DNA of 64,000 bases from an uncultured Mesorhizobium sp. (GTDB taxonomy: Bacteria; Pseudomonadota; Alphaproteobacteria; Rhizobiales; Rhizobiaceae). The stretch's first letter is position 1. Every line of letters starts with the position of its first letter. Shown piece after piece: positions 2,203 to 22,673 of the stretch. The stretch spans positions 32,898 through 96,897 of the forward strand of contig CAZVTK010000002.1 in the NCBI GenBank assembly GCA_964629765.1, given 5' to 3'. Position numbers and translations under genes: made by a program. The notes below the pieces were generated by a model. That model made no database searches and was not told the DNA's origin. It saw only the letters and a program-made list of their open reading frames with translations.

Positions 2203-4293
2203 GTGAGTGCATTGCGGTTGCGCCTCGGCGTGGACATCGGCGGTACGTTCACCGATCTGGTCATCGACGGAATTCCGGGCGAAGGCCTGCGCCTGTTCAA
2301 GAGCTCGACGACGCCGAGCGATCCGGCATTGGGCCTGCTGGCGGTGATCGACGTCGCGGCGCGGCGGCTGGGCTACGAGCGCTCCGAATTCCTGGGCATG
2401 GCCGATCAGTTCGTCCACGGAACGACGCGCGCCACCAACGCCATCGTCACCGGCTCGACGGCCCGGACCGCCTTTCTGTGCACGGAGGGTCATCGCGACA
2501 CGCTCCTGTGGCGCGAAGGCGGCGGCCGGCGCTCGCCGATGGATTATACCCAGCCGTTTCCCGAGCCCTATGTTCCGCGCGCCCTCACCTTCGAGGTTCG
2601 CGAACGCATGGTGTCGGATGGCCGCGTGCTGACGCAACTGGACGAGGAAAAGCTTCGACAAACCCTCGTCGAGATCGGGAAGGCTTCGGTCGAGGCGATT
2701 GCCGTGTGCCTGTTGTGGTCGATCGCCAACCCGGCTCACGAGCTGCGGGTGGGGGAACTGATCAGGGAAATCCTTCCCGGCATTCCCTTCACGCTTTCCC
2801 ACCAGCTCAACCCGACGATCAGAGAGTATCGCCGCGCGTCGTCGACGGCCATCGACGCGTCGCTGAAGCCCCTGATGTCGCACTATTTCTCGCACATCGA
2901 GGCAAGCCTGCGCCGGGAAGGCTTCAAGGGCCGCCTGCTGGTGCTGACCTCCGCCGGCGGCGTCCTCGACGCGACCGACGTGGCCCAGAAGCCCATCCAC
3001 TCGGTGGGCTCCGGGCCGGCCGCGGCGCCGGTGGCGGGGCGTCATTTCGCCGCTCTCGACATGGGGGCCGACACTGCGGTGGTGACCGATGCGGGAGGCA
3101 CGACCTACGATGTCAGCCTCGTCCGTTCCGGCGAGATCCCGTGGACACGCGAGACGATGGTGGGGGATTTCCCCGGCAACATGCTCGGCTTCCCGTCGGT
3201 GGACGTGCGCTCGATCGGCGCGGGAGGCGGCTCGATCGCCTGGGTCGATTCCGGGGGCCTGCTGCGCGTCGGGCCGCAAAGCGCCGGCGCCGACCCGGGA
3301 CCGGCGGCCTATGGCCGCAACGGCGCCCTGCCCACCGTCACCGACGCGGCCGTGGTGCTCGGCTATATCGACCCGGACTATTTCCTCGGCGGCGACATGC
3401 CGCTGCGGGCGGACCTGGCAGCGGCGGCGATCGAGAAGGAGATAGCGGGGCCGCTGGGAATCAGCCTCAACGAGGCGGCGAGCGCGATCTTCGAGCTGGC
3501 CTGCGAACGCATGGTCAGCGCCATCGAGGAGATCACGCTCAACCAGGGCATCGACCCGTGCAGCGCGGCGATGATCGGCGGCGGCGGCGGGGCGGGGCTC
3601 TATTCCGCCTTCATCGCGCGGCGGCTGGGCGTGAGGCAGATCCTGATCCCCGAGACGTCCGCCGCGCTCAGCGCGGCCGGCGCTCTCATCTCCGACCTTC
3701 GCAGCGACGAGGCGTCCTTCCTGGTCACCTCCAGCGCGGATTTCAACTTCGCGGCGGTCAATGCGGTGCTCGAGGATCTGGAGCGTCGCTGCGAAGCGTT
3801 CATCGTCTCGGCCGGCGGGGCACGCGAAGCCGCCTCGATCCGCTTCGTCGTCGAGGCGCGCTATCCGCACCAGAACTGGGAGTTCGAGGTTCCGCTGACG
3901 GTGACGCGCTTCACGAGCGACGAGGACGTCGAAGCGGCCCGGCAGGACTTCCATGCCGTTCACGAGCGGCTGTTCGCGCATCGTGACGAACATTCGCCGG
4001 TCGAATTCGTCACGTGGCGGGCAAGCGTGCGGTGCCTGCTGCCCCATCCGCAGCCCCGGTCCGCGGGTGCCCGGAAGGAAGCGGGCGCAGCCGCCTCGAC
4101 GCGAATGGCCGTGTTCGGAAAGGAACCGATGGCCACCAGCGTATGGCGGCTCGACGACATGCTGCCGGGCCAGTCGCAGCATGGCCCCGCCATCATCGAG
4201 ACTCCGGCGACGACCATCATCGTGCCGCCGGAGGCGGTGGCGGTGCGCCTGAAGTCGGGATCCCTCGCCCTGGATCCCTCGGTTTCAAAGTGA
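2203..4293 (+). CDS. Hydantoinase A/oxoprolinase family protein (ATP-binding subunit)
   Basis: GVDIGGTFTD, HGTTRATNA, SGPAA, DAGGTTYDV, SIGAGGGSIA, GPQSAGADPGP, PTVTDA. Shine-Dalgarno (SD) GGAGG upstream. Confidence 0.93.
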   Translation: MSALRLRLGVDIGGTFTDLVIDGIPGEGLRLFKSSTTPSDPALGLLAVIDVAARRLGYERSEFLGMADQFVHGTTRATNAIVTGSTARTAFLCTEGHRDTLLWREGGGRRSPMDYTQPFPEPYVPRALTFEVRERMVSDGRVLTQLDEEKLRQTLVEIGKASVEAIAVCLLWSIANPAHELRVGELIREILPGIPFTLSHQLNPTIREYRRASSTAIDASLKPLMSHYFSHIEASLRREGFKGRLLVLTSAGGVLDATDVAQKPIHSVGSGPAAAPVAGRHFAALDMGADTAVVTDAGGTTYDVSLVRSGEIPWTRETMVGDFPGNMLGFPSVDVRSIGAGGGSIAWVDSGGLLRVGPQSAGADPGPAAYGRNGALPTVTDAAVVLGYIDPDYFLGGDMPLRADLAAAAIEKEIAGPLGISLNEAASAIFELACERMVSAIEEITLNQGIDPCSAAMIGGGGGAGLYSAFIARRLGVRQILIPETSAALSAAGALISDLRSDEASFLVTSSADFNFAAVNAVLEDLERRCEAFIVSAGGAREAASIRFVVEARYPHQNWEFEVPLTVTRFTSDEDVEAARQDFHAVHERLFAHRDEHSPVEFVTWRASVRCLLPHPQPRSAGARKEAGAAASTRMAVFGKEPMATSVWRLDDMLPGQSQHGPAIIETPATTIIVPPEAVAVRLKSGSLALDPSVSK

Positions 4294-4329
4294 ATCAGCC
4301 AGTAAATCAACCGCATGGGGAGATGCATG

Positions 4330-5871
4330 ATGAGTGATAATGGCAGACGTTCAAATGGGATTACACGGCGTCGGGTACTGCAAGCGGGGGCGGTTGGCCT
4401 GTTGGCGTCAACCGCAATTCGCCCCGTCTGGGCAGCCGGCGAAAGCAAGGAATTGCGGATCGCCTATGGCTCCATAGGCACCGACTGGAATCCGCATAAC
4501 GCGTCGAACACCGATTCCGAGGTGATCAACGCCACATTCTCGCAAAACCTGGTCACCACCAATGACAAGGGCGAGATCATACCCGTCGTCGCGGAGTCGG
4601 TCACGCAGGTTTCAGACACCCAGGTTCACGTCAAGCTGCGTAACGGCGTCACCTTCAGTGACGGAAAGCCCGTTACAGTGGAAGACGTGAAATATACGCT
4701 GGAAGATTATCTGCGGCCGACGGGGATGTTCACCAACCCGGTCTATTTCTGGTTGAAGGACGTCGCCATCGTCGATTCCACCACGGTCGCGGTCAATGCG
4801 AAACTCCCGATCCGGACCGCGATTCCCCTGATGGCGTTCCAGTCCCGCGTCATCCCGAACGGCGCGGAAGGGCCGGCATTCAGCAGCAGCCCCATTGGAA
4901 CCGGGGCCTACGTCTTCGACAGCTATCAGCCGAACGACCGGGTCGTCGTCCGCAGGAACGACAACTACTGGGGAGAGCCGAAGGCGACCTTCGACCAGAT
5001 CACGTTCCGCCAGATTTCCGACCCGTCGACCCGGGTGGCGGCGCTTCTGGCGGGCGAGGTGGATTTCGCCCAGAATATTCCGGTCCACGAGATTTCCCGG
5101 CTTCAGGAGGCCGGATTTACGGTGTCGTCCCGGGCCGGCCGGCGCACCATGCTGCTTTGGACCAACCGCGCCAAGGAAGGCCCCTGGCGCGATCCCAGGG
5201 CGGCGCAGGCCCTGGCCTATTCCATCGACACGACCGCGCTCAACGATGCGCTGTATGCCGGGATGGGATCGCCGAGCAGGGCACCGATAGCGGATTCCGT
5301 TCCCTTTGCCGCAACCGATCTTCCTCAATACCCGCACGACCCGGCCAAGGCGCGGGAACTGCTCGAAGCGGCGGGCGTCGGGTCCGGGAAGGTGAAGCTG
5401 CTGGCGCCGCAGGGCCGGTTCCTCAACGACAAGGCTCTCGCCGAGGCGACTGCGGGCCAGTTGGAAGAAGCGGGCCTGTCCGTCGAGCTTCAGCTCTACG
5501 ACTTCGCAACCTTCCGCAACATCGGCTCGGATCCGTCGAAGCACGACGCCGATCTCATCATGGTCGGCTGGAACGCGTTCTATGCCGACGCCGACGCCGG
5601 CTTGCAGATCTTCCGCCACAAGCATCCGTTCAACTACGGCGGCTACCGGAACGACGAGATCGAGGAGCTGCTCGGCAAAGGCACCCTGCCGGCGTCGACA
5701 AGCGAGACGACGGAACGGTACAAGCGCATTCAGGAACTGCTGTGGACCGAGGATCCGCCCGGCGCCTTCCTGCTTTCGCTTCCCATCGTGCACGCCTTCC
5801 GCAAGGAATTGCAGGGCGTGGAAGTATACCCCGACGAGCGGATCGACTGGACCAAGGTCTCGCTCTCCTAG
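4330..5871 (+). CDS. ABC transporter substrate-binding protein, family 5 (DppA/OppA-like), Tat signal
   Basis: TRRRVL Tat-like signal; LRNGVTFSDGKP..EDVKY and PIGTGAY motifs. Start at 4327 or 4330. Confidence 0.9.
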   Translation: MSDNGRRSNGITRRRVLQAGAVGLLASTAIRPVWAAGESKELRIAYGSIGTDWNPHNASNTDSEVINATFSQNLVTTNDKGEIIPVVAESVTQVSDTQVHVKLRNGVTFSDGKPVTVEDVKYTLEDYLRPTGMFTNPVYFWLKDVAIVDSTTVAVNAKLPIRTAIPLMAFQSRVIPNGAEGPAFSSSPIGTGAYVFDSYQPNDRVVVRRNDNYWGEPKATFDQITFRQISDPSTRVAALLAGEVDFAQNIPVHEISRLQEAGFTVSSRAGRRTMLLWTNRAKEGPWRDPRAAQALAYSIDTTALNDALYAGMGSPSRAPIADSVPFAATDLPQYPHDPAKARELLEAAGVGSGKVKLLAPQGRFLNDKALAEATAGQLEEAGLSVELQLYDFATFRNIGSDPSKHDADLIMVGWNAFYADADAGLQIFRHKHPFNYGGYRNDEIEELLGKGTLPASTSETTERYKRIQELLWTEDPPGAFLLSLPIVHAFRKELQGVEVYPDERIDWTKVSLS

Positions 5872-5909
5872 GGCATTTCCGGCGTCGTAGAAATGCGACG
5901 GGACTGACG

Positions 5910-5945
5910 GCCGGATCGTTTCATCGCGCGATGAAACGATCCGGC
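5910..5945. repeat. Perfect 36-bp palindrome GCCGGATCGTTTCATCGCGCGATGAAACGATCCGGC between SBP and permease genes
   Basis: Self-reverse-complementary over 5910-5945. The position is typical of an mRNA-stabilising hairpin. Confidence 0.85.
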
Positions 5946-5967
5946 TCCGTAACCAAGAATATACGCG

Positions 5968-6900
5968 ATGATCTTGCAGACACTGAAAAGATCGCTCCGC
6001 GCCATCCTGGTGATGCTTGGCGCCTGTCTGCTGGTATTCGTCGTGCTTCGGCTTGCGCCGGGAGATCCGGCGCAAATCCTGCTTGGCGACACCGCCGCCC
6101 CCGAAGCCATCGCCATGCTGCGGGAACAGCTCGGCCTGAACCAGCCGATCTGGGTCCAGGCGATCTATTTCTTCGGCAACCTGTTGCAGGGCGACGCGGG
6201 AGACTCGGTCGTCTACGGCCGGCCGGCCATGCAGCTCGCCCTGGAAGCCTTTCCCGCCACCTTGTTCCTCGTGGTCGCGTCATTCGTGATCGCGACGATC
6301 GTGGCCATTCCCATCGGCACCGCGTCCGCTGTCTGGCGCGGGTCGCTGGTCGACAAGGCGGGGCTCGGCGTCATCCTTCTGTTTCAGTCCCTCCCCGGCT
6401 TCTGGGTCGGGATTCTGCTGATCTTCTTCTTCGCCGTGAACCTTCGCCTCCTGCCGACGTCGGGCGGCGGCAGCATCGCGCATGTGGTGCTGCCGGCGCT
6501 GACGCTCGCGACCGTCCAGATCCCGATGCTCGCCCGCGCCGTCCGGGCGAGCATGCTCGAGGTCTTGGACGAAGACTACATACGGACCGCCCGGGCCAAG
6601 GGCGCCTCCGAATGGCGTGTCGTGATGCTGCACGGTTTCCGCAACGCTCTCATTCCCGTCATCACGCTGATGGCGGTGAATTTCGGGACATTGCTTTCGG
6701 GGACCGTGGTGACCGAGGCGATCTTCGCCTGGCCCGGCATAGGCACGCTGGCGATGACCGGCATCCTTCAGCGGGACTATACGCTCGTTCAGGCGATCGT
6801 GATCTTCTCGGCCGCCATCGTGGCGCTGGCGAATTTCACCGCCGACTCGCTGTACCAGATACTCGACCCGCGGCTGCGCGGGCAGGGAGCCGGCGAATGA
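5968..6900 (+). CDS. ABC transporter permease (DppB-like)
   Basis: LAPGDPA, GLNQP and the EAA loop DYIRTARAKG; hydrophobic. Confidence 0.93.
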   Translation: MILQTLKRSLRAILVMLGACLLVFVVLRLAPGDPAQILLGDTAAPEAIAMLREQLGLNQPIWVQAIYFFGNLLQGDAGDSVVYGRPAMQLALEAFPATLFLVVASFVIATIVAIPIGTASAVWRGSLVDKAGLGVILLFQSLPGFWVGILLIFFFAVNLRLLPTSGGGSIAHVVLPALTLATVQIPMLARAVRASMLEVLDEDYIRTARAKGASEWRVVMLHGFRNALIPVITLMAVNFGTLLSGTVVTEAIFAWPGIGTLAMTGILQRDYTLVQAIVIFSAAIVALANFTADSLYQILDPRLRGQGAGE

Positions 6901-7778
6901 GCGACGCGTCCCCGGCATACGACGCACCCGAGGGCGACGCCTTGCAGCGCCGCCGCTCGATCTTGCGCGTAGTGCTCGATCATCCGGTGGCGCTGTTCGG
7001 CTTCGGCGTCCTTCTGGCGCTCGTCCTGATGGCGATCTTCGCCCCGTACCTGGCGCCGTTCAGCCCGACGCAGCAGAGGCTCACCTCCCGGCTGCTGCCG
7101 CCGCTGTCGGGAAGCCATTGGCTCGGAACCGATCAGTTCGGCCGCGACGTCCTTTCGCGCTGGCTCTACGGCGTGCGCGTTCCGCTGGTGGTGGGCGTGG
7201 TGTCGGCCCTGCTCGGCGGGGTGCTCGGAACGATCGTCGGTCTCACGGCGGGATACTTCCGGGGAAAGATCGACACCGTCATCTCGATCGTCATCGATAT
7301 CCAGCTATCCGTGCCGTTCGTCCTGCTGGCTCTCGCCGTCGTCGCGCTTTTCGGTCCGGGAACGGTAAAGATCATCATCGTCTTCGCGCTCACCAACTGG
7401 GCGATGGTTGCCCGGGTCGCGCGCGCGTCGGCCTTGAAATACCGTCGGGCCCCGTTCGTGGAGGCGGCGATCCTCGCCGGGGCGACGGACCGATGGATCC
7501 TGCTGCGGCACGTTTTCATCAACGCGATACCGCCGGTCATGGTGGTAGTGTCGGTGCTGGCCGCGCAGAACGCCATCTACGAATCGGCCTTCGCATTCTT
7601 CGGCCTCGGCGTGCCCCCTCCCACCCCGAGCTGGGGCAACATGCTGGCGGACGGCAAGGACTACTTCTACAGCGCCTGGTGGCTCGGCCTCTTTCCGGGC
7701 ATCGGCATCCTGCTCGTCGCCGTGGGCATGAACCTGATCGGAGACTTTCTCCGCGACGCGATCGACCCCAGGCTGTGA
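6897..7778 (+). CDS. ABC transporter permease (DppC-like)
   Basis: HWLGTDQFGRDV, FVEAAILAG, PPTPSWGNML. ATGA overlap with the upstream gene; C-terminal part of track ORF 5157..7778. Confidence 0.92.
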   Translation: MSDASPAYDAPEGDALQRRRSILRVVLDHPVALFGFGVLLALVLMAIFAPYLAPFSPTQQRLTSRLLPPLSGSHWLGTDQFGRDVLSRWLYGVRVPLVVGVVSALLGGVLGTIVGLTAGYFRGKIDTVISIVIDIQLSVPFVLLALAVVALFGPGTVKIIIVFALTNWAMVARVARASALKYRRAPFVEAAILAGATDRWILLRHVFINAIPPVMVVVSVLAAQNAIYESAFAFFGLGVPPPTPSWGNMLADGKDYFYSAWWLGLFPGIGILLVAVGMNLIGDFLRDAIDPRL

Positions 7779-7798
7779 GCAGGTTGGAGAAAGCCGCC

Positions 7799-9691
<1,893 letters not shown>

Positions 9692-10177: not shown

Positions 10178-11368
10178 ATGACCGCTACCGGCTTTCGCGC
10201 TTCGCCCGCGCAGGGCTACGACGATGTCGTGATCGCCGCCCCGTTCACGCTTCCCTATCGGCGTTTCTCGACCCGGGGTGCGCACTGGTTCCTCGGCCGG
10301 GTTCTCCACGGCCTCCTCGAATGCAGCGGCCTTTCCAAGGACCGTATCGACGGCCTGTGCGTTTCGAGCTTCACGCTGGCGCCCGACACGGCGGTCGGCC
10401 TGACCCAGCATCTCGACCTGACGCTGCGCTGGCTCGATCACATCCCGATGGGCGGCGCGAGCGCCATCGTCGCGCTCAGGCGCGCGGCGCGCGCCGTGCA
10501 GTGCGGCGACGCCGCGATCGTCGCCTGCATCGCCGGCGACACCAACCAGGTGGATACCTTCCGCCAGAGCACGGCCCGCTTCAGCCAGTTCGCGCAGGAT
10601 GCCGTATACCCCTATGGCGCCGGCGGCCCGAATGTCAGCTTCGCCTTCCTTACCGCCTATTACATGCGCATCTACGGCGCGCGCCCGGAGGATTTCGGCA
10701 AGCTGTGCGTGGCCCAGCGCAACAATGCGCTGCATTTTCCTTTCGCGCTGTTCAGGAAGCCGCTCACCCTCGACGAGTATCTCGCCTCGCGCATGATCGC
10801 CGACCCGATCCGGCTCTATGACTGCGTGATGCCCTGCGCGGGTGGCGAAGGCTTCCTCGTGATGCGCCGCCAGGAGGCCGAGCGCATGGGGCTGCCCCAT
10901 GCGCATATTCTCGGCACCATCGAGCGGCACAACGCCTTTCCCGAAGACCCGATCCAGTTTCGCGGCGGATGGGCGCTCGACGCCGGAACGCTCTACGAGC
11001 AGGCCGCGATCGGCCCAGAGGATATCGACGTTCTCCAGACCTATGACGACTACCCCGTCGTCACCATGCTGCAATTCGAGGATCTCGGCTTCTGCAGCAA
11101 GGGCGGGGGGCCGGATTTCGTGCGCCGCCATTCCTTCGAGGCGGGAGGCAGCTTTCCGTTCAACACGTCCGGCGGGCAGCTTTCGGTCGGGCAGGCGGGA
11201 GGCGCCGCCGGCTTTCTCGGTCTGGTCGAAGGCTTGCGGCAGGTCACGGGCACCGGGCTCGGCGCGCGCGTCGCCGATGTCCGCCATGCCATGGTGAGCG
11301 GCTTCGGCATGATCAACTACGACCGCGGTTTGTGCAGCGGCGCGGCAATTCTCGGTGCGCAGCGATGA
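10178..11368 (+). CDS. Thiolase-family protein (SCP2/Ltp2-like, no N-terminal acylated Cys)
   Basis: AQRNNA..P.A, TYDDY, EDLGFC, FNTSGGQLS. PMGGASA lies where thiolases have C-x-S. Confidence 0.85.
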   Translation: MTATGFRASPAQGYDDVVIAAPFTLPYRRFSTRGAHWFLGRVLHGLLECSGLSKDRIDGLCVSSFTLAPDTAVGLTQHLDLTLRWLDHIPMGGASAIVALRRAARAVQCGDAAIVACIAGDTNQVDTFRQSTARFSQFAQDAVYPYGAGGPNVSFAFLTAYYMRIYGARPEDFGKLCVAQRNNALHFPFALFRKPLTLDEYLASRMIADPIRLYDCVMPCAGGEGFLVMRRQEAERMGLPHAHILGTIERHNAFPEDPIQFRGGWALDAGTLYEQAAIGPEDIDVLQTYDDYPVVTMLQFEDLGFCSKGGGPDFVRRHSFEAGGSFPFNTSGGQLSVGQAGGAAGFLGLVEGLRQVTGTGLGARVADVRHAMVSGFGMINYDRGLCSGAAILGAQR

Positions 11369-12618
11369 CGAAGCCGAAGATCAGGAACCCCATCCTGCGC
11401 ACGCGGCAGCCTACCTTGCCGCCCGTCACGCGCAGCCGGATCGCCCTCGGCATGACGGCGGGCGCCGCCCTCGGCCGTTTCGAATTGCAGGTCTGCGAAG
11501 CGTGCGGTGCGGTGCAATATCCCGCCCGCGAGGTCTGCCGGCGCTGCCTGTCCGACCAGCTCGTCTGGCGCCCGCAGGACGGCAGGGGCGAACTGATCAG
11601 CGAGACGACGTCCCGCGCCTCGCAGGAGCTTTATTTCCGCGAGCGGCTTCCGTGGCGGCTCGGCATGGTGCGGCTCGCCGCGGGGCCGACCGTGGTGGCG
11701 CATGTCCATGCCGATTGCCCGGCGGCGCCCTGCGCGGTGCGCGTCACGGCCGTGCTCGACAGGGCCGGCCAGGCCACGCTCGTGGCCGTGCCCCCAAAGG
11801 GAAGGCCCGATCTCAACGAGGATCCGCGCCTGAAGGACATGACATGCGACCCGGCGGGCCGGAAGATCCTGGTGACGGACGGCAAGAGCCCGGCGGGCCA
11901 GGCCGTGGTGCGCGCGCTCGCCGCCGCGGGCGCCAGCCTGATCTGGGCCGGCTGCGCGGAACCGTGGAAGCGGCCGCCGGGCTTCGCCGCCCTTTGCGAG
12001 CTGCCGCAGGTGGATATCGTGCCGCTCGACGTGACGGACACCCGCTCCGTCGCCGAGCTCGCGGGCCGCATCGGCGGCAAGGTCGATATCGTCGTCAACA
12101 CCGCCGACCATCACCGCACCTTCGGCATCGGCGCCCGGCAGGGCATCGCGACGGCGCAGGCGGAAATGGAGGTGAACTATTTCGGCATGCTGCGGCTGGC
12201 GCAATCCTTCGGTCCCGCGCTGCGCGCGCGGGCGGCGGACGGCGAGGCCAATGCGGTGGCCTGGGTCAATCTCTTCAGCGTGTTCGCGCTCTCCAATTTT
12301 CCGCCGCACGGCACCTATTCGGCCTCGCAGGCCGCCGCGCTTTCGCTTTCGCAATGCCTGCGCGCGGAGATGCAGCCCGCCGGCATCCGCGTCGTCAACG
12401 TCTTCAGCGGCCCGGTGGACGACGAATGGAACCAGCTCGTGCTGCCGCCCAAGCTCGGGCCGGAGGCGCTGGCCGATGCCGTCGTCTCGGCGCTGAAGGG
12501 CGCGGTGGAGGATGTGTTCCACGGCCCCGTCGCGCAGGACTGGCTGGAGCGGTGGCGCAGCGACCCGAAGACCCTCGAACGCGAGCTGACGGCGGCCGCG
12601 TCGTCGGGCGGCGCCTGA
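11365..12618 (+). CDS. DUF35 Zn-ribbon/OB-fold domain fused to an atypical SDR domain
   Basis: CEAC..CRRC zinc ribbon and OB-fold, followed by a Rossmann fold with TDGKSPAG and YSASQ. ATGA overlap with the thiolase gene. Confidence 0.85.
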   Translation: MTKPKIRNPILRTRQPTLPPVTRSRIALGMTAGAALGRFELQVCEACGAVQYPAREVCRRCLSDQLVWRPQDGRGELISETTSRASQELYFRERLPWRLGMVRLAAGPTVVAHVHADCPAAPCAVRVTAVLDRAGQATLVAVPPKGRPDLNEDPRLKDMTCDPAGRKILVTDGKSPAGQAVVRALAAAGASLIWAGCAEPWKRPPGFAALCELPQVDIVPLDVTDTRSVAELAGRIGGKVDIVVNTADHHRTFGIGARQGIATAQAEMEVNYFGMLRLAQSFGPALRARAADGEANAVAWVNLFSVFALSNFPPHGTYSASQAAALSLSQCLRAEMQPAGIRVVNVFSGPVDDEWNQLVLPPKLGPEALADAVVSALKGAVEDVFHGPVAQDWLERWRSDPKTLERELTAAASSGGA

Positions 12619-12637: not shown

Positions 12638-13423
12638 ATGACGGACGCGTTGACCGGTTTCGCCACAGCCCTCGCGACGGGAAAGATCCGCATCGTCGAC
12701 CTGACGCAGACCCTGACGCCCGGCTTTCCCCGGATCACCCTGCCGCCCGAGATGGAGCAGAGCCGCCCGTTCCGCATCGAGGAGATCTCCCGGTACGACG
12801 AGCGCGGCCCCGCTTGGTACTGGAACAATTTCTCCTGCGGCGAGCATACGGGCACGCATTTCGACGCGCCGATCCACTGGATCACCGGCCGCGACCTGCC
12901 GAACAACGCCACCGACACGATCCCGCCCGAGCATTTCATCGCGCCGGCCTGCGTCGTGGATTGCTCCGCCGAGAGCGCCCGCGATCCCGATCATCTCCTG
13001 ACGGCCGACGCCCTGCTGGCCTGGGAGGGCGTGCACGGGCGGATACCGGCGGGAAGCTGGGTGCTGATGCGCACCGACTGGTCGAAGCGCACCGATCCCG
13101 CCGCCTACCAGAACTATGACGAGACGGGTCAGCACACGCCGGGGCCGGATGTCGGCGCGGTGCGCTTTCTGGTCGAAAAGCGCGACGTCCTCGGCTTCGG
13201 CACCGAAACCATCGGCACCGATGCTGGACAGGCCGCGCATTTCCAGCCGCCCTATCCCTGTCACAGCTTCATGCATGGAGCGGGGCGCTACGGCCTGCAA
13301 TGTCTCGCCAATCTCGACAAGCTGCCGCCCACGGGCGCGCTGATCTTCGCGGCGCCTCTGAAGATCCAGCGCGGCAGCGGCAGTCCGCTTCGTGTCCTCG
13401 CAATCCTTTCCGCCGGAGCCTGA
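12638..13423 (+). CDS. Cyclase/kynurenine-formamidase family amidohydrolase, isatin hydrolase-like
   Basis: HTGTHFDAPIHW metal motif; GTDAGQ and APLKI..GSGSP.R closely resemble isatin hydrolases as recalled. Confidence 0.88.
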   Translation: MTDALTGFATALATGKIRIVDLTQTLTPGFPRITLPPEMEQSRPFRIEEISRYDERGPAWYWNNFSCGEHTGTHFDAPIHWITGRDLPNNATDTIPPEHFIAPACVVDCSAESARDPDHLLTADALLAWEGVHGRIPAGSWVLMRTDWSKRTDPAAYQNYDETGQHTPGPDVGAVRFLVEKRDVLGFGTETIGTDAGQAAHFQPPYPCHSFMHGAGRYGLQCLANLDKLPPTGALIFAAPLKIQRGSGSPLRVLAILSAGA

Positions 13424-13425: not shown

Positions 13426-15024
13426 ATGTCGCCCGCCGCGCCCTTCGCCCCCGCCGACCGCACCTTGCCGGCCATGCTGGAACGGCAGGCCGCGCGCTAC
13501 GGCGACCGCCGGCTCGTGACGACGGAAGACGGCGCATGGACCTATGCCGAGGCGCGCGAGGCGGCCGCCCGCGCGGCGGCGGCGCTTGCGCAGGCCGGCA
13601 TCGCCAGGGGCGACCGCGTCGCGATCCTGTGCGGCAACCGGCTGGCATTTCTGGAAATCGTGCTCGGCTGCGCCTGGCTGGGCGCCATCCTGGTGCCGAT
13701 CAACACCGCCTCGCAGGGGCCGCAGGTCCAGTACATTCTCGGCAATTGCGGGGCGAAGCTGCTCGCCTGCGAGACGGATCTCGTCTCCGCGCTGGACACG
13801 GCCGATCTTTCCGCGCTGCCGCTGGAAACGATCTGGTCCATCGGCGGGGAGCCGCCGGCAGATGGCGTCCAGGGCCGGCCTTGCCGGGCCTATGCGCCGG
13901 GCGGCGACCGGCTCGCGCCCGCCGCCATCCGGCCCGGCGACACCATGGCCATTCTCTACACCTCCGGCACGACCGGGCCCTCCAAGGGCGTCTGCTGCCC
14001 CCACGCGCAATATTACTGGTGGGGCAGCCTGTCGGCGGCCGCGCTCGGGGTGCGCGAGGGCGACGTGCTCCTGACGACCTTGCCGCTGTTCCACATCAAC
14101 GCGCTCAACACGTTCGCGCAGGCGCTTCTGAACGGCGCGTCCTACGTGCTCGAAAGGCGTTTCTCGGCCTCGGGCTTCTGGCCGGCGCTGGCGAGGCACG
14201 AGGCGACCGTGACCTACCTGCTCGGCGCGATGGTCCCGATCCTGCTCGCGCGGGAGCCCTCGCCCGCCGAACGCGAGCACAAAGTGCGCATCGCGCTCGG
14301 CCCCGGCGTGCCGGGCCATCTGCACGAGGTGTTTCGCGAGCGCACGGGCGTCGCCCTGCTCGAGGCCTATGGCTCCACCGAAACGAATTTCGTCATCGGC
14401 CGGGGGATCGGGGACCAGAAGCCCGACACGATGGGACGCGTGCGCGACGGCTTTTTCGCGCGCGTGGTCGATGCGCAGGACAATCCGGTGCCCGATGGCG
14501 AGCCGGGCGAGCTGGTGCTGCGCGCGGACGAGCCTTTCGCCTTCGCCACCGGCTATTTCGGCATGGACGACAAGACTGTGGAGGCGTGGCGCAATCTCTG
14601 GTTCCACACCGGCGACCGCGTGATCCGCGACGGCGAAGGCTATTTCAGATTCGTCGACCGCCTGAAGGACGCCATCCGGCGGCGCGGCGAGAACATCTCG
14701 TCCTACGAGGTCGAGCAGGTGCTGCTGAGCCATCCGCAGATTGCGGCCGCGGCGGTCTATCCGGTGCGATCGGAGCTCGCCGAGGACGAGGTGATGGCCG
14801 CGATCGTGCGTCGTGCCGACGCGGATTTCGACGAGGTCGCGCTGATGCGGTTCTGCGAGACGCGCATGCCGTATTTCGCGGTGCCGCGCTACGTGACCTT
14901 CGCGTCCGACCTGCCGCGCACCGAGAACGGCAAGGTGCAGAAATACAAGCTGCGCGAAGAGGGCGTGACGGCCGCGACCTGGGACCGCGAAGCGCATGGC
15001 TATCAGATCAGGCGACGCAAATGA
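13426..15024 (+). CDS. ATP-dependent acyl-CoA ligase (CaiC-like)
   Basis: YTSGTTGPSKG, YGSTE, WFHTGD, RRRGENISSYEVE and GKVQK adenylation motifs. Confidence 0.93.
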   Translation: MSPAAPFAPADRTLPAMLERQAARYGDRRLVTTEDGAWTYAEAREAAARAAAALAQAGIARGDRVAILCGNRLAFLEIVLGCAWLGAILVPINTASQGPQVQYILGNCGAKLLACETDLVSALDTADLSALPLETIWSIGGEPPADGVQGRPCRAYAPGGDRLAPAAIRPGDTMAILYTSGTTGPSKGVCCPHAQYYWWGSLSAAALGVREGDVLLTTLPLFHINALNTFAQALLNGASYVLERRFSASGFWPALARHEATVTYLLGAMVPILLAREPSPAEREHKVRIALGPGVPGHLHEVFRERTGVALLEAYGSTETNFVIGRGIGDQKPDTMGRVRDGFFARVVDAQDNPVPDGEPGELVLRADEPFAFATGYFGMDDKTVEAWRNLWFHTGDRVIRDGEGYFRFVDRLKDAIRRRGENISSYEVEQVLLSHPQIAAAAVYPVRSELAEDEVMAAIVRRADADFDEVALMRFCETRMPYFAVPRYVTFASDLPRTENGKVQKYKLREEGVTAATWDREAHGYQIRRRK

Positions 15025-15034: not shown

Positions 15035-15772
15035 ATGACCATGCAGACGGCATTCGTAACCGGCGCGGCGCAGGGGCTGGGCGCGGCGATCGCCAAGGCC
15101 CTCGCCGATTCCGGCCGCAACGTGGTGCTGGCCGACGTCGACGCATCCGTCGCCGAGACCGCCAGGGCCATCGACCCCCACGGCCGGCGCGCCGTCGCGC
15201 AGATGCTCGACGTGCGCGACGAAGAGGCGTTCCAGTCGGCGTTCGACGGCGCGGTGGCGCGCTTCGGCGCCGTCGACATCATGGTCAACAACGCCGCACG
15301 CACGGCGATGCGCCCGGTATGGGACATCACCGCGCCGGAATGGGACGACGTGCTGTCGGTCAATCTGCGCGGCACGTTCTTCGGCTGCCGCATCGCCGGC
15401 CGGCACATGCGCGAGCGCAAGGCCGGGCGCATCATCAACCTTTCCTCGATCGCCGGCCAGTTGGCCAGCCCCGCGACGGGCGTGCACTACGCGGCCTCGA
15501 AGGCGGGCATCCTCATCCTGACGAAGGTGTTCGCGCAGGAGCTCGCTCCCTTCTCCGTGACGGTCAACGCCGTCGCGCCGTCCGCGATTTCGAGCCCGGC
15601 GGTCGAATCCGCGCCGCCCGAGAAGATCGCCGCGGTTCTCGCGACCATCCCCGTGGGCCGTCTCGGGCGGCCGGACGAGCTGAGCTCCGCCGTCCTCTAT
15701 CTCGCGTCCCAGGATAGCGGCTACATCACGGGCGCGACGCTCGACATCAATGGCGGCAGGCTGATGCGCTGA
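15035..15772 (+). CDS. Classical SDR oxidoreductase (FabG-like)
   Basis: TGAAQGLG, NNA, YAASK. SD GAGGAGG. Confidence 0.92.
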   Translation: MTMQTAFVTGAAQGLGAAIAKALADSGRNVVLADVDASVAETARAIDPHGRRAVAQMLDVRDEEAFQSAFDGAVARFGAVDIMVNNAARTAMRPVWDITAPEWDDVLSVNLRGTFFGCRIAGRHMRERKAGRIINLSSIAGQLASPATGVHYAASKAGILILTKVFAQELAPFSVTVNAVAPSAISSPAVESAPPEKIAAVLATIPVGRLGRPDELSSAVLYLASQDSGYITGATLDINGGRLMR

Positions 15773-15795: not shown

Positions 15796-16227
15796 TCAAT
15801 CCCGCTCATAGGTGAGCTTCTTGAGCATGCCGATGAATTCGTCGTGCTTCGATCGCGGAAGGGAGCTGAGGAGCTGCGCCTGCACGCGCTGAACGGCGGG
15901 TTCCGCCTGTTCCAGCAGGGCCATCCCTTCGGCCGAAAGCGCGAGGATCTTGATCCGGCGGTCCTCCTCGCTCGGCGTGCGCTGGACGAGCCCCTTCTTC
16001 TCCAGCCGGTAGATGACGTCGCCGATGGTCGAGCGGTCGAACGCGATCAGCTCCGAAAGCCGCGTCGCATCGATGCCGGGGTTGTATCGCAGCGTGCGCA
16101 TCGCAGCATATTGCACGGAGGTCATGTCGAGGGCTCCGCACTCGGCGGCGAAGAGAGCGGAGTGCACCTGCCAGAGCCGACGCACCAGATGCCCGGGCAT
16201 CGAATACAGATCGTCGGACTTACCCAT
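15796..16227 (-). CDS. MarR family transcriptional regulator (PcaV/MobR-like)
   Basis: PGHLVRRL..QY...FDRSTIG..RLEKKGLV.R..DRR winged helix. Start ATG 16227 (GTG 16251 possible). Confidence 0.93.
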   Translation of the reverse strand: MGKSDDLYSMPGHLVRRLWQVHSALFAAECGALDMTSVQYAAMRTLRYNPGIDATRLSELIAFDRSTIGDVIYRLEKKGLVQRTPSEEDRRIKILALSAEGMALLEQAEPAVQRVQAQLLSSLPRSKHDEFIGMLKKLTYERD

Positions 16228-16266
16228 CTGACAGTTCGGCTTTCCCTGCACGACATCGAGCTATCT

Positions 16267-16321: not shown

Positions 16322-18310
16322 TCACCCCCCGGACGAACCGGCGTCGTCGCGGGCGAGCCGGGCGCCGAGCAAGACGCCTTCCTTCACCGCGAAGGACAGG
16401 CCGCGCGGCGCCAGGCAATCGCCGATCTGGATCGTCGGCAGGCCGGACGGCGGAACGGGTTCGCGCTCCAGCGGTCCGGCCCAGACGAGCCCGTCCGCCG
16501 CGAGCGGGATCGCCCTGCCTTCGCGGAAGCGGCACATGAGAACCCCGTCGGCCGTCTCGACGGCGGCGCGGACATGGATGGCGACGCCGGCCGCGCGCAG
16601 GCGGACGATGACGGCCTCGAAACTCTCCGGCGGAATGCGGCCCGCGACGCGCTCCTGCCGCGTGACCATCGCCACCTCGCAGCCGGCGGCGGCGGCGGCC
16701 TCCGCGGCGCTGACGGCATCCCATCGGCCGGTTTCGTCGACCACGACGACGCGACGCCACCCGGGCCGGCCTGCCGGATCGAGGAACCGCTCGGGGGAGA
16801 CGACCGGCAGGCCCGCGACGGCGCCGACCGCCGTGCGCGCGCCGGTCGCCGCAACGACCAGGCCGACCCCGTCCTCCCGCAGGACCGAGGCGTCCGGCGC
16901 GGCCTCCAGCCTGACGCGTATCCGGCCGCTGCGCGCGATGCGGCCTTCGAGATGGCGCACATAGTCGCGCCACGCCGCGCGGTGCGGCGCCATCCCGGCG
17001 ATGCGGCAGCGTCCGCCCAGCGCCGCCGAGCGCTCGTACAGGACGACATGCGCACCGGCCTTCGCGGCCGACAAAGCGGCCTCGCATCCAGCCGGGCCGC
17101 CGCCGACGACGCCGACGACGCCAGTGATCGGGGCGCGCCCGCTGATGTCCGTCTGCACGGCGGGAAGCGAGAGCGCGCCGGGGTTGACCTTGCAGGTGAC
17201 CCAGTTCTGACCGCGGTAGACGCGGCAATCCTCCATGCAGCGCAGGCAGGGGCGGATGTCGTCCGCCTTGCCGGCGGCCGCCTTGAGCACCCATTCGGGA
17301 TCGGCGAGCAGCGCCCGCCCGAGCCCCACCATGCTGGCGTCGCCGCTGGCAACCATGTCCTCCGCCAGCCCGGGCGTGCCGATGTTCTGGGTCGCCGTCA
17401 CGGGACAGCCGACCACGCGCAGGATGTTGCGGGTCGCCTCGCGGGTCCCGCCGGCCGGAAAGCTCGCGTCCTTCACGTAGCGATGCGGCGCGGAAGCCAC
17501 CGAAACCGTGATGTAGTCGATCAGGCGTTCCTGCCAGAGCGCGCCGCACAGCTCCAGTATCTCGCCCGCCTCCGGGCCTGCCTCGTCGCGGCCGCCCGAC
17601 GGCAGCCGGATGCCGATAAGGCGGCCGGGGTGATCGTCTCGCAGATCGCTCAGGATCTCGCGGTGCAGCCGCGAGCGGTTGCGCAGCGACCCGCCATACC
17701 CGTCGCCCCGGCTGTTGCGCGCGGGAGCCAGGAACTGGTTCAGCAGGTAGCCGTGCGCCGCATGCAGCTCGACGCCGTCGAAGCCGGCACGGATCACGTT
17801 GCGGGCGGAGGCGCGATGGGCATTGCGGAGCTCCGCGATATCGGCGAGGTCGAGCGCCGGGGCGAAGACCCCTTCGCGCCGGGACAACGCCGGCGACGGG
17901 CCGGCGACGGCGGCGTAGGGCGGCGCGAGACCCCATCGCTCCGCGCCGAAATGCAGGAGCTGGGCCACCACCAGCCCGCCATGCCCGTGCACCGCGTCGG
18001 CGACCGGGCCGAGCCGCGCCGCGAAGCCGGGATCGAAGATCGGCAGCAGGCCCCTGTCGTCCCGCCGCGTCGCGTGGAAGGAATGCTCCGCGACGACGGT
18101 GGCGCCGAGCACGATCAGGCCGAGCCCGTTTGCGGCGAGCTCGGCGAAGTTGCGCACGAGCTCGGGAACCGTGAGCGTCGCCTGCCCGTGCGGCAATGCG
18201 ACGGTGCGGTTGCGGGCAACGTGGCCGGCGGCGATCTCCAGCGGCCGGAACAGCGCGGGAAAGCCGCCTGCCTCCGGCTTTGCGGGCGCGGCCGCCGACC
18301 CGGGCGCCAT
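16322..18310 (-). CDS. NADH:flavin oxidoreductase (OYE barrel + 4Fe-4S + FAD domain; FadH/BaiH-like)
   Basis: GFDGVELHAAHGYLLNQF, DGYGGSL.NR, CLRCMEDC..C and GGGPAG motifs. Confidence 0.88.
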   Translation of the reverse strand: MAPGSAAAPAKPEAGGFPALFRPLEIAAGHVARNRTVALPHGQATLTVPELVRNFAELAANGLGLIVLGATVVAEHSFHATRRDDRGLLPIFDPGFAARLGPVADAVHGHGGLVVAQLLHFGAERWGLAPPYAAVAGPSPALSRREGVFAPALDLADIAELRNAHRASARNVIRAGFDGVELHAAHGYLLNQFLAPARNSRGDGYGGSLRNRSRLHREILSDLRDDHPGRLIGIRLPSGGRDEAGPEAGEILELCGALWQERLIDYITVSVASAPHRYVKDASFPAGGTREATRNILRVVGCPVTATQNIGTPGLAEDMVASGDASMVGLGRALLADPEWVLKAAAGKADDIRPCLRCMEDCRVYRGQNWVTCKVNPGALSLPAVQTDISGRAPITGVVGVVGGGPAGCEAALSAAKAGAHVVLYERSAALGGRCRIAGMAPHRAAWRDYVRHLEGRIARSGRIRVRLEAAPDASVLREDGVGLVVAATGARTAVGAVAGLPVVSPERFLDPAGRPGWRRVVVVDETGRWDAVSAAEAAAAAGCEVAMVTRQERVAGRIPPESFEAVIVRLRAAGVAIHVRAAVETADGVLMCRFREGRAIPLAADGLVWAGPLEREPVPPSGLPTIQIGDCLAPRGLSFAVKEGVLLGARLARDDAGSSGG

Positions 18311-18320
18311 CGTCCGGCGC

Positions 18321-18857
18321 CTAGACCGGCCTGGCCGTATAGCGGAAGAAGGTCAGCATCTCGACGCCGCAGAGCTCGCCGTCCGCTTCCTTCGTGTACG
18401 CCGTCTCCACCTTCATGAAGATGCCGTCGCCGATGGCGGTGGACTTGGGGGTGACGTCGCGCAGAACGGAGGTCGAGACGATGCGATCGCCGGGGTGGAC
18501 CGGTGCATGGTAGCGCGTGTCGACTGCCGTCACGACCACCCGGTCGCCCGGCCCCGGCACGACCTCGAAAATGGGCGGGCCGGGGACGAACGGGTCCAGG
18601 CTGAGCTCGCCCTGCGCGGGCCAGTAGGCGCGCGTCGAGAGCGGGCGCAGCATCGAGACGGGCGCGACAACGTCGGGATATCCTTCCCGACGGGCGGCCT
18701 CGGGGTCGAGATGGATCGGGAAGCCGACGCCCTGCACCTCCATCTTGCGGCGGAAGTCGGCCACCGAGGCGGCGTCGGCGCCGACGCGCGGGGGCAAGGG
18801 GCGGCCGATCCAGGCACGGGCATCGTCCACCGTTCCGGGAATGAGGTGCAGCGCCAT
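18321..18857 (-). CDS. MaoC/FAS1-like hot-dog dehydratase subunit (N-terminal type)
   Basis: YHAPVHPGDRI hot-dog signature and PDVVAP. SD GAGGAG. Confidence 0.75.
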   Translation of the reverse strand: MALHLIPGTVDDARAWIGRPLPPRVGADAASVADFRRKMEVQGVGFPIHLDPEAARREGYPDVVAPVSMLRPLSTRAYWPAQGELSLDPFVPGPPIFEVVPGPGDRVVVTAVDTRYHAPVHPGDRIVSTSVLRDVTPKSTAIGDGIFMKVETAYTKEADGELCGVEMLTFFRYTARPV

Positions 18858-18895
18858 GCTCGTCTCCTCGTCGCGCGATGATGTGCGAAGCGCCG

Positions 18896-19840
18896 TCAGC
18901 CGGCCTTTGCCGCCCGGGCCGATGCCGCAGCGGCCTCGGCGTCGATCAGGCCGATGTCCTGGAACGCCGACCGCATAACGTCGATCTCCGACGCGGGGGG
19001 CATGAGATAGGGGCGGCGGACGTCGCCGCCCGGATGGCTGAACACCTTGAGCGCCATCTTCACCCAGCGCGCGCTCGACGGGCTCCAGCGGCCGGACAGC
19101 TTGTAGAGGCGCAGGATGATGCCCATCTTGTGCGCCGCCCCGGCGATGTCGCCCGCCTCCGCGTCGCGGATGACGCCCATCAGCAGGTTAGGGCACACAT
19201 TGCCTTCGGCCGCCTGGCAGCCGTCGAGCCCCATCAATATGTCCTGCAACAGCGTCGCCGTGCCTGTGTAGACGGCCACGTCGTCCGGGATGCCGTCGCG
19301 GATCTGGAGGGCCGTCTCGCTTCCCGCGGCGATCACATGGACCGCGCGCACCTGGCTGAAGCCCTTGACGAGCTGGCTGATCAGCCTGGTCGAGGGCGAC
19401 CACGACGAGGCGACGCGGTGGATCGACAGGGCGATCGGGAAGTCGACGGCGCGCAGCACGTCCTCGTAATAGGCCACCTGCTCGTCGGGGCGCGGCCGCA
19501 TGCCGTGGCCGGCGTCCAGCGCGTACAGCTCGACGCAGTCGACGCCGACGTCGATCGCCATCTTCATCCATTCGATGACCTGCGCGGCCGTGCGCGGCTC
19601 GGGGGGATTGGCGTGCACGGGCACGCGGCCCTTCAGCACCTCCACGCCGATCTCGAACACGCGCCGCCGCTCGTCCTCGCTGAGGGCATAGCCCTCGCCC
19701 GAGCCGGGGCTGCCGAGATACACGCCCACGCCGGCATCGCGCAGGCGTCTCAAATGCGTGCGGAACCCCTCCTCGTCGAGCGATCCGTCCTCCCGGAAGG
19801 GGGTGGTGCTCATGGCGAACACGGTCTTCTTGCGCGACAA
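18896..19840 (-). CDS. Dihydrodipicolinate synthase/N-acetylneuraminate lyase fold protein with a non-canonical active site
   Basis: TTPFREDGSLD, GSGEGYALS..ER. His stands at the Schiff-base Lys position (VRAVHV). TTG start with SD. Confidence 0.82.
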   Translation of the reverse strand: MSRKKTVFAMSTTPFREDGSLDEEGFRTHLRRLRDAGVGVYLGSPGSGEGYALSEDERRRVFEIGVEVLKGRVPVHANPPEPRTAAQVIEWMKMAIDVGVDCVELYALDAGHGMRPRPDEQVAYYEDVLRAVDFPIALSIHRVASSWSPSTRLISQLVKGFSQVRAVHVIAAGSETALQIRDGIPDDVAVYTGTATLLQDILMGLDGCQAAEGNVCPNLLMGVIRDAEAGDIAGAAHKMGIILRLYKLSGRWSPSSARWVKMALKVFSHPGGDVRRPYLMPPASEIDVMRSAFQDIGLIDAEAAAASARAAKAG

Positions 19841-19843
19841 GGG

Positions 19844-20275: not shown

Positions 20276-20345
20276 CTCGCGGCCTCCGCCGCGCCGATGC
20301 CGGCACAGGGCGCCGGCGTCCCGTCATGTCGCTTTGCGGTCATGG

Positions 20346-21795: not shown

Positions 21796-21809
21796 CGGGT
21801 GTCCACTTC

Positions 21810-22637: not shown

Positions 22638-22673
22638 TCTGGCGCGCGGCCTGCCGGCCCGAACCGCCGCCGG

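Follow-up and report, generated by a model that had tools for sequence, protein, structure and literature searches.

We analyzed a 64,000-nucleotide stretch of DNA (the window) from an uncultured Mesorhizobium sp. (assembly GCA_964629765.1, contig CAZVTK010000002.1, positions 32,898 to 96,897 of the forward strand), and in particular two overlapping genes that encode a thiolase-fold protein and a fusion of a DUF35 domain with a domain of the short-chain dehydrogenase/reductase (SDR) type. The window has a GC content of ~68%, and the real genes were picked out by the GC content of their codon positions. The plus-strand genes between 10178 and 15772 form a tightly packed operon, a five-gene module with the order iadG-iadH-iadI-iadF-SDR. 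As judged by sequence comparison and gene order, the two overlapping genes are orthologs of iadG and iadH. These belong to the iad (indole-3-acetic acid degradation) operon, by which bacteria break down the plant hormone auxin. The features of the module, together with the gene that follows it, are the following:

10178-11368, plus strand: IadG-like thiolase-fold protein of 396 amino acids, predicted retro-aldolase subunit (Pfam Thiolase_C_1; PDB matches)
10445-10465, plus strand: PMGGASA motif, with G93 at the position of the thiolase nucleophilic cysteine (alignment, conservation)
11039-11056, plus strand: TYDDYP motif, with Y289 as the predicted catalytic base (alignment, conservation)
11171-11203, plus strand: GGQLSVGQAGG segment, which contains Q334 and Q339 (alignment, conservation)
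11365-11368, plus strand: ATGA stop/start overlap coupling translation of the iadG-like and iadH-like genes (TGA at 11366-11368, ATG at 11365-11367)
11365-12618, plus strand: IadH-like DUF35-SDR fusion of 417 amino acids (Pfam zf-ChsH2, OB_ChsH2_C, and adh_short)
11458-11739, plus strand: DUF35 domain, made up of a rubredoxin-like zinc ribbon and an OB fold (Pfam; Cys4 ribbon at 11494-11547)
11854-12600, plus strand: SDR-like domain with degenerate motifs (TDGKSPAG at 11875-11898, YSASQ at 12316-12330)
12638-13423, plus strand: IadI-like isatin hydrolase, cyclase family PF04199 (PDB matches, synteny)
13426-15024, plus strand: AMP-forming acyl-CoA ligase, IadF-like (Pfam AMP-binding; ATG 2 nucleotides past the hydrolase stop codon)
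15035-15772, plus strand: canonical SDR at the IadJ position (Pfam adh_short; GGAGG upstream of the ATG at 15035)
15796-16251, minus strand: MarR-family regulator, convergent with the end of the operon, possible regulator (Pfam MarR)

Translational coupling of the first two genes, which had been proposed in a first-pass annotation of the sequence, was borne out by the overlap of the TGA of one gene with the ATG of the other. In other loci, the spacing between iadG and iadH is mostly −4 or +8 to +13 nucleotides.

The IadG-like protein lacks the catalytic cysteines of thiolases

The closest PDB sequence match of the IadG-like protein was CtSal, the bile-acid side-chain aldolase of Comamonas testosteroni, which acts with its DUF35 partner CtShy (9MYR; E value of 1.5e-46, or 2.2e-59 with the family profile; PMC12329534). 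The second was the steroid C3 side-chain aldolase TcLtp2 of Thermomonospora curvata, which is also a Cys-less thiolase fold with a DUF35 partner, ChsH2 (6OK1; 1.8e-37, or 1.3e-47 with the family profile). The next matches were an uncharacterized Sphaerobacter thiolase, a Pyrococcus thiolase, the DUF35-bound proteins BbsB and an archaeal thiolase, and PhlC. A fold search with the AlphaFold2 model also placed 9MYR and 6OK1 at the top, with template modeling scores of ~0.7, which have to be read in light of the low confidence of that model. With a predicted local distance difference test score (pLDDT) of 62.6 and active-site loops below 50, the model was too poor for checking whether a cysteine maps to the active site; therefore, we used alignments to CtSal and Ltp2. 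The residue roles were taken from the work on CtSal, in which Gly89 was placed at the position of the thiolase nucleophilic cysteine (PMC12329534), and they were mapped onto the window protein by HMMER alignments as follows:

CtSal Gly89, position of the thiolase nucleophilic Cys: window G93
CtSal Tyr302, catalytic base (equivalent to Ltp2 Tyr294): window Y289
CtSal Cys304, catalytic acid (His296 in Ltp2): window D291
CtSal Tyr305, minor role: window Y292
CtSal Gln347 and Gln352, proposed stabilizers of the Cys304 thiolate: window Q334 and Q339
CtSal Arg216 and Asn162, CoA binding: window R205 and N152
CtSal Gln161, part of the oxyanion hole: window P151

The first-pass annotation had noted PMGGASA in place of the acylated cysteine and a retained TYDDY motif, and both observations proved correct, with glycine at the nucleophile position by alignment. 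G93 was also aligned with the cysteine of the AACASG motif in the Pyrococcus thiolase 7YVY. Conservation was assessed over 73 homologs from 80 genomes, with the YDDY motif scored in 72 aligned sequences. We found that G92, G93, Q334, and Q339 are invariant (73/73), as is the Y289-D290-D291-Y292 sequence (72/72), and YDDYP was present in all 120 metagenomic relatives. The acid/base cysteines of thiolases are missing as well: YDDY is found where HDCF stands in thiolases, and serine or alanine occupies position 374, which corresponds to the cysteine of the CxG motif. The acids used by the two aldolases are likewise replaced. The position of the Sal-type acid Cys304 is taken by D291, which is invariant in the IadG family, and that of the Ltp2-type acid Tyr344 by Q339, in agreement with the earlier remark that the second tyrosine of Ltp2 is not conserved in the GQAGG segment.

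The IadH-like protein joins a DUF35 domain to a degenerate SDR-like domain

The description of the second gene as a DUF35 zinc ribbon/OB fold fused to an SDR was confirmed by Pfam, which detected zf-ChsH2 (residues 32-66), OB_ChsH2_C (68-125), and adh_short (167-354). From the N terminus, the protein consists of a conserved leader, a Cys4 rubredoxin-like ribbon, the OB fold, a linker, and an SDR-like domain of 250 residues; its AlphaFold2 model has a pLDDT of 76.8. The four ribbon cysteines (C44, C47, C58, and C61) are invariant in all 81 homologs over which conservation of IadH was counted, and the DUF35 domain gave a weak match to the DUF35 chain of 6ESQ.

The leader (residues 1-31; 11365-11457) is almost invariant, with the sequence KNPILRTRxPTLPPxxRSRVALGLTAAAA, and its pLDDT is below 50. 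It is a candidate for an aldolase-wrapping helix of the kind that Shy has at the N terminus of its DUF35 domain in the Sal-Shy(DUF35) structure.

The SDR-like domain carries the degenerate nucleotide motif TDGKSPAG and the sequence YSASQ instead of YxxxK, as had been noticed before. Among the homologs, the glycine-rich motif has the form T-D-G-K-x-x-x-G, in which D172 is invariant, K174 is found in 80/81 sequences, and the second glycine is not conserved. It thus departs from the TGxxxGxG of classical SDRs, the first glycine of which is replaced by D172. At the position of the catalytic tyrosine, we found phenylalanine in 49 and tyrosine in 32 of the 81 proteins, with phenylalanine in all those from Variovorax. 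The lysine position is occupied by lysine in 73, methionine in 4, glutamine in 3, and histidine in 1. The YSASQ sequence of the window protein, which deviates from the classical Tyr-x3-Lys, belongs to a small sublineage. Two further residues, Asn271 and Ser305, do not vary, and a large part of the surface of the SDR-like domain is strongly conserved.

Because the domain as a whole is conserved while its signature residues have drifted, selection acts on it, although what is kept is not the Tyr/Lys proton relay of classical SDRs. Moreover, since the catalytic tyrosine is absent from all IadH proteins of Variovorax, in which the gene is essential, the SDR-like domain probably does not work as a classical dehydrogenase and more likely serves for structure or binding. 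The proposal that the SDR domain serves as a scaffold without dehydrogenase function was thus supported in part, by the phenylalanine in 49/81 proteins and by the invariant aspartate of the glycine-rich motif.

The gene pair belongs to iad loci and is followed by an isatin hydrolase gene

To place the pair in a wider context, genomes were scanned for the fusion gene using one genome per species. Relatives were present in more than 582 species, and 80 loci were fetched. Searches with tblastn detected a thiolase-like gene directly upstream of the fusion gene in 74 of these 80 loci, the exceptions being mostly incomplete contigs or split matches, and a cyclase-family gene downstream in 75, directly after the fusion gene in nearly all. 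The cyclase is the most conserved member of this trio (~68-84% identity). Compared with most Variovorax strains, V. paradoxus included, the window proteins show 61-63% (IadG), 62-63% (IadH), and 71-73% (IadI) identity. The IadG-like protein is 79-82% identical to its closest relatives, which come from Mesorhizobium and from a Pseudomonadota metagenome-assembled genome (MAG). The five-gene module is shared by Mesorhizobium sp. L-8-3 and a Pseudomonadota MAG, the closest relatives of the window.

Clustering of open reading frames combined with Pfam revealed which genes recur around the trio in most betaproteobacterial and many alphaproteobacterial loci: a thiamine diphosphate-dependent 2-oxoacid:ferredoxin oxidoreductase pair, a ferredoxin reductase, the alpha and beta subunits of a Rieske oxygenase, a CoA ligase, an SDR, and Peripla_BP_6 binding proteins. 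In V. paradoxus NBRC 15149 and in Bradyrhizobium, the iadA-F and iadJ-K genes surround the trio. The recurrent order is that of iadA-iadK in the Variovorax operon and agrees with a published gene table, in which iadG, iadH, and iadI are listed as "thiolase," "short-chain dehydrogenase," and "cyclase family protein," respectively (PMC12852158).

The order seen in the window, G-H-I followed by the ligase, corresponds to the Bradyrhizobium/Mesorhizobium arrangement. The CoA ligase of the window is 33-53% identical to the ligases that follow iadI in alphaproteobacterial loci (Bradyrhizobium, Mesorhizobium) and 36% identical to a betaproteobacterial IadF. The SDR encoded at 15035-15772 shows 74-75% identity to the SDRs found at the same place in two of the fetched loci, L001 and L002, and the L002 copy clusters with Variovorax IadJ. 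Its orthology to IadJ is uncertain because its identity to Variovorax IadJ is only ~32%.

The first-pass annotation had placed a CoA ligase and an SDR adjacent to the pair. Both genes are indeed present; however, the gene that comes first after the fusion is the one at 12638-13423, which encodes an isatin hydrolase. Its product matched the PDB entry 5NMP ("Isatin hydrolase") over residues 5-257 with an E value of 2.1e-111 and 375 bits, and the other isatin hydrolases, 5NNA/5NNB (~1e-107) and 4J0N (1e-88), also over the whole length. The isatin hydrolase metal motif HxGTHxDxPxH was aligned in the window protein as EHTGTHFDAPIHW. The kynurenine formamidase 4COB reached only 28 bits. Furthermore, the protein is 70-84% identical to its counterparts in bona fide iad loci. 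Because an isatin hydrolase gene follows the IadG/IadH pair in almost every genome, isatin is the expected product of the preceding step.

A predicted retro-aldol cleavage of dioxindole-3-acetyl-CoA

Genetic data on these genes are available for V. paradoxus CL014, in which deletion of iadF, iadG, iadH, or iadI abolishes the formation of anthranilate (PMC12633357). All four deletions lead to a pile-up of C10H9NO4, which was identified as dioxindole-3-acetic acid and is most abundant in the iadF deletion; this evidence is also contained in the August 2026 version of the paper (PMC12633357). Dioxindole, isatin, isatinic acid, and anthranilate had been detected in cultures by earlier metabolomics (PMC9613470). 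From annotation, the authors of the deletion study assigned CoA ligase function to IadF, "ketothiolase" function to IadG, and "alcohol dehydrogenase" function to IadH, and called the loss of the side chain brought about by the three a "reductive removal" (PMC12633357). In the literature searched, we found no earlier proposal of an aldolase or of DUF35, and no report of the missing cysteine, for IadG or IadH.

Dioxindole-3-acetic acid is a β-hydroxy acid with a tertiary hydroxyl at C3, a quaternary carbon of the oxindole ring. Dioxindole-3-acetyl-CoA thus cannot be oxidized to a β-keto thioester, and the route of thiolysis is chemically closed. The same constraint is met by Ltp2 at C17 of the steroid.

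We infer, from sequence, from the metabolite that builds up in the Variovorax mutants, from the downstream isatin hydrolase, and by analogy with the known aldolases, that IadG together with the DUF35 domain of IadH would cleave dioxindole-3-acetyl-CoA by a retro-aldol reaction into isatin and acetyl-CoA, and we give this reading a probability of about 70%. In the proposed sequence of steps, the CoA ligase would form the CoA thioester of dioxindole-3-acetic acid (3-hydroxy-2-oxindole-3-acetic acid). IadG would then most likely act as a complex with IadH, joined to its N-terminal DUF35 domain in the manner of Sal-Shy and Ltp2-ChsH2. A physical aldolase-DUF35 heterotetramer would fit the gene overlap and the strict co-occurrence of the two genes. 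Judging from Shy and ChsH2, this domain would attach to the helical insertion of IadG and give the substrate cleft its shape. Tyr289 is predicted to deprotonate the tertiary hydroxyl at C3, upon which the C3-CH2 bond would break and leave a ketone at C3. The resulting acetyl-CoA enolate would be protonated, probably by Asp291, which takes the place of Sal Cys304 beside the two conserved glutamines. The products would be isatin and acetyl-CoA, and no redox cofactor would be needed. The isatin hydrolase would subsequently open isatin to isatinate, which leads on to anthranilate. Where the iad locus is complete, the IadAB oxidoreductase could plausibly take isatinate to the level of anthranilate.

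This mechanism differs from the published assignment. The release of isatin by a retro-aldol reaction would also account for the invariable presence of an isatin hydrolase gene after the pair. The idea of an Ltp2-like, CoA-dependent retro-aldolase, put forward in the first-pass annotation, therefore appears sound in its core: 9MYR and 6OK1 are the best matches, the nucleophilic cysteine is absent, the tyrosine is invariant, and the DUF35 gene is coupled. Of the aldehyde or ketone product proposed there, the ketone is still predicted, but it would be isatin.

Observations that weigh against the proposal, and alternative explanations

Several observations speak against the retro-aldol proposal as formulated above. 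Conserved cysteines do exist in IadG: C220 is invariant, C117, C216, and C306 are nearly so, and C386 is present in 64/73 homologs. They do not look catalytic, as far as alignment allows one to judge. C216 and C220 align within the segment that binds the pantetheine/adenine part of CoA in Sal, where Ltp2 has LLDCC, and C386 is replaced by glycine or alanine in 8/73 homologs. In CtSal, the C304A, C304S, and C304H variants were all inactive (PMC12329534), while IadG has an aspartate at this position. Sal Gln161 corresponds to Pro151 of the IadG-like protein. In addition, tblastn with representative sequences did not find iadABCDE in the 64-kb window. The iad-like cluster of the window is thus a partial one; fragmentary clusters of this type have been seen in Sphingomonadales (PMC11630574). 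Furthermore, Variovorax without iadI accumulates C8H7NO2, which corresponds to dioxindole (isatin plus two hydrogens), and not isatin (PMC12633357). Last, the solved structure closest to the SDR-like domain, that of a Burkholderia cenocepacia SDR (5U4S), itself lacks the catalytic tyrosine, with leucine in its place (SLSASK), yet it was crystallized with NADP. As an aside, the PRK08264-type SDR subfamily around 5U4S may as a whole be noncanonical.

The last two observations bear on whether IadH is, after all, a working enzyme. The accumulation of C8H7NO2 requires either a reductase activity or a secondary reduction of accumulated isatin. IadG and the DUF35 domain could catalyze the retro-aldol step while the SDR-like domain acts as a noncanonical NAD(P)H-dependent isatin/dioxindole oxidoreductase, so that dioxindole is released. 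Besides the metabolite found without iadI and the reductive step inferred by the authors (PMC12633357), such an activity would fit the invariant Asn271 and Ser305, the lysine present in 73/81 homologs, the strong overall conservation of the domain, and the NADP in 5U4S. We nevertheless consider it unlikely. The first glycine of the dinucleotide motif is an invariant aspartate and the second is not conserved, phenylalanine replaces the tyrosine in 49/81 proteins, and glutamine, histidine, or methionine replaces the lysine in others. Moreover, the pair is followed by an isatin hydrolase, not a dioxindole hydrolase, and reduction of isatin would work against the pathway. The preferred reading of the C8H7NO2 accumulation is that isatin is reduced by cellular carbonyl reductases; it is favored, although unproven, because Variovorax, in which the accumulation was measured, has phenylalanine at the tyrosine position, because an aspartate stands in the nucleotide loop, and because the hydrolase is isatin-specific. 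A route to C8H7NO2 through N-formyl-aminobenzaldehyde and a formamidase was discarded, since the third gene is an isatin hydrolase ortholog and not a kynurenine formamidase.

The absence of iadABCDE from the window raises a different question, namely, whether the same enzymes act here on another β-hydroxyacyl-CoA. The first-pass annotation had envisaged hydroxy-phenylpropionyl-CoA-type substrates whose products feed gentisate-type genes. The Dpp-type transporter of the window, which is not of the IadK type, would suit such a substrate, as would the gentisate dioxygenase-like cupin, glutathione S-transferase (GST), and flavin monooxygenase encoded 7-16 kb away, and IadH of the window sublineage has glutamine or histidine at the lysine position. 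However, the module is iadG-iadH-iadI, its conserved partner is an isatin hydrolase with 70-84% identity to bona fide iad loci and an E value of 2e-111 to solved structures, and the active-site residues of IadG are the same as in the Variovorax proteins. The gentisate-type genes lie ~14 kb off on the other strand and are beside the core in 0/80 other genomes, as the minus-strand genes in general are essentially never found there. The gentisate link is thus not supported, and a different substrate appears improbable; the system is instead the part of auxin catabolism that removes the side chain.

The published annotation itself, with IadG as a β-ketothiolase and IadH as a 3-hydroxyacyl-CoA (alcohol) dehydrogenase in ordinary β-oxidation, agrees with the database names and with the pathway scheme, which its authors inferred from annotation (PMC12633357). 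It would require chemistry that the tertiary alcohol of the substrate does not permit, as this alcohol is not oxidizable. It would further have to proceed without a nucleophilic cysteine (G93 is invariant), without the acid/base cysteines (YDDY; S/A374), and, in Variovorax IadH, without the SDR tyrosine. We regard it as very improbable. A PhlABC-like acyltransferase was also dismissed, as there is neither a cysteine nor a PhlA-type partner.

Comparison with known enzymes

CtSal, which needs its DUF35 partner, is the best match to IadG in both sequence and fold. Both proteins have a thiolase fold with glycine at the nucleophile position, a catalytic tyrosine within a YDxY motif, the glutamines equivalent to Gln347 and Gln352, the CoA-binding arginine and asparagine, and a DUF35 partner encoded by an adjacent gene. 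For IadG, a β-hydroxyacyl-CoA is likewise predicted as the substrate, with acetyl-CoA among the products. In contrast to CtSal, IadG has Asp291 (YDDY) instead of the acid Cys304 (YDCY) and Pro151 instead of Gln161, and it is predicted to act on an oxindole rather than on a steroid. The partners also differ. The zinc ribbon is Cys4 in IadH and Cys3His in CtShy, and in IadH the DUF35 domain forms the N-terminal part and is joined to an SDR-like domain, whereas that of Shy is C-terminal to a MaoC hydratase.

With TcLtp2, IadG shares the equivalent of Tyr294, a tertiary β-hydroxyl on a ring carbon of the (predicted) substrate, and a ring ketone as the product. The two are set apart by Gln339 versus Tyr344, by YDDY versus YDHF, and by the release of propionyl-CoA by Ltp2 as compared to the acetyl-CoA predicted for IadG.

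The benzoylsuccinyl-CoA thiolase BbsAB (7PXP), the archaeal thiolase/HMG-CoA synthase complex (6ESQ), and PhlABC (5M3K) belong to the same SCP2-like branch and are DUF35-bound. They are described as true thiolases or acyltransferases with an active-site cysteine, unlike the window protein, which has glycine at that position. The SCP2-thiolase-like protein of Trypanosoma brucei (TbSLP; PDB 5AB4-5AB7) is also Cys-less at the nucleophile position and carries a YDxF motif; in contrast to IadG, the motif is YDCF, and there is no DUF35 partner. The authors of the CtSal study proposed TbSLP as a possible aldolase (PMC12329534).

The V. paradoxus proteins are orthologs of the window proteins, with the same gene order including iadI, identical key residues in IadG, and the same DUF35-SDR architecture in IadH (PMC9613470, PMC10374108, PMC12633357). 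The window differs from the Variovorax locus in having neither iadABCDE nor an IadK-type transporter, in the position of the ligase gene after iadI as in Bradyrhizobium, and in the Tyr/Gln of IadH as opposed to the Phe/Lys of Variovorax. In the literature, IadG and IadH are named a ketothiolase and an alcohol dehydrogenase, and the missing cysteine and the DUF35 domain go unmentioned in the papers searched.

Other genes of the window

MarR-family regulators are typical of iad loci (PMC9613470, PMC11630574). For the MarR protein of the window, tblastn found no close homolog among the 80 loci. As for the minus-strand genes, counterparts beside the core were an enoyl-CoA hydratase-like gene in 3 of the 80 loci and a flavin monooxygenase gene in 1, and otherwise none. 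Both the MarR gene and the minus-strand genes were therefore dropped as parts of the system, having essentially no counterparts there.

Directly upstream of the aldolase gene, the plus strand encodes a Dpp/Opp-type ABC transporter (SBP_bac_5, permeases, and a fused double ATPase; 4315-9691). A similar transporter is found after the module in loci L021, L024, L027, and L030, and Variovorax/Mesorhizobium loci use Peripla_BP_6 (IadK-type) proteins. With a transporter of the Dpp/Opp type instead of the IadK type, the imported substrate may differ, for example by being a conjugate or an oxidized auxin. Upstream of the operon, the plus strand also carries a hydantoinase B/A (oxoprolinase-type) pair (213-4293). 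Homologs of the pair with 44-48% identity lie ~8 kb from the iadG-H-I core in loci L004, L005, L006, and L008; it may be a recurrent associate of auxin catabolites that contain a lactam.

The minus-strand cluster at 16322-28121 encodes an OYE/FadH-like flavoenzyme, two MaoC-like hot-dog proteins, a DHDPS-family protein, an enoyl-CoA hydratase, a flavin monooxygenase, an FAD_binding_2 protein, a GST, and the gentisate dioxygenase-like cupin. The two MaoC-like genes flank the DHDPS-like gene, and a MaoC pair split in this manner is an unusual arrangement. Further along the minus strand (30603-38391) are genes for a cytochrome P450 with a ferredoxin reductase and for a molybdopterin oxidoreductase with an Fe-S/flavin partner. 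Because the Rieske proteins IadCDE are absent from the window, the P450 or the molybdopterin oxidoreductase could provide an alternative oxidizing route.

The YDD clade and its significance

A profile search of 1.84 billion representative sequences returned 738 proteins at E values up to 1e-30. Among the 62 best full-length representatives at 50% identity, ~40 combine Gly-Gly at the nucleophile site with YDD[Y/F]. Lower-scoring proteins have YDC[Y/F], as in Sal and SLP, or other variants. Four distant YDD members were sampled (L081, 5891-7335; L082, 177-1546; L083, 102-1486; L084, 2782-4375), and in all four a gene for a CxxC...CxxC ribbon protein follows directly. One of these ribbon proteins is a full standalone DUF35 of 135 amino acids, and another is a mini version of 100 amino acids encoded behind a CoA ligase gene, near a VanA-type Rieske oxygenase. 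The four sampled pairs are candidate aldolase pairs of other pathways.

Because a ribbon gene directly follows each sampled member, the Tyr-Asp type looks like a broad clade of DUF35-partnered proteins. IadG is the member of this clade for which genetic data exist, and the fusion to an SDR is special to IadH. As the genes are already known and named, they do not represent a new system. To our knowledge, thiolase-fold aldolases have so far come only from steroid degradation. On balance, we lean, by a little, toward the broader view that the Tyr-Asp arrangement of IadG is a third catalytic solution among DUF35-dependent thiolase-fold aldolases and serves the first nonsteroid substrate, an oxindole acetyl-CoA, that the YDD clade is a large unrecognized class of CoA-dependent retro-aldolases acting on aromatic or heterocyclic acids, and that the DUF35 domain of IadH has recruited a pseudo-dehydrogenase as a scaffold.

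If true, this would extend a family represented so far by two steroid enzymes, adding a new catalytic variant, a new fusion partner of DUF35, and a nonsteroid substrate. By means of the iad pathway, Variovorax and Bradyrhizobium free the rhizosphere of surplus auxin and maintain root growth, and the pathway is being engineered into other root bacteria. Its step of acetate side-chain removal is still named from annotation, as "ketothiolase plus alcohol dehydrogenase." Should the retro-aldol reading be correct, Y289 and D291 would be the key residues of this step, the DUF35 part of IadH alone may suffice for it, and thousands of "acetyl-CoA acetyltransferase" annotations would probably be wrong.

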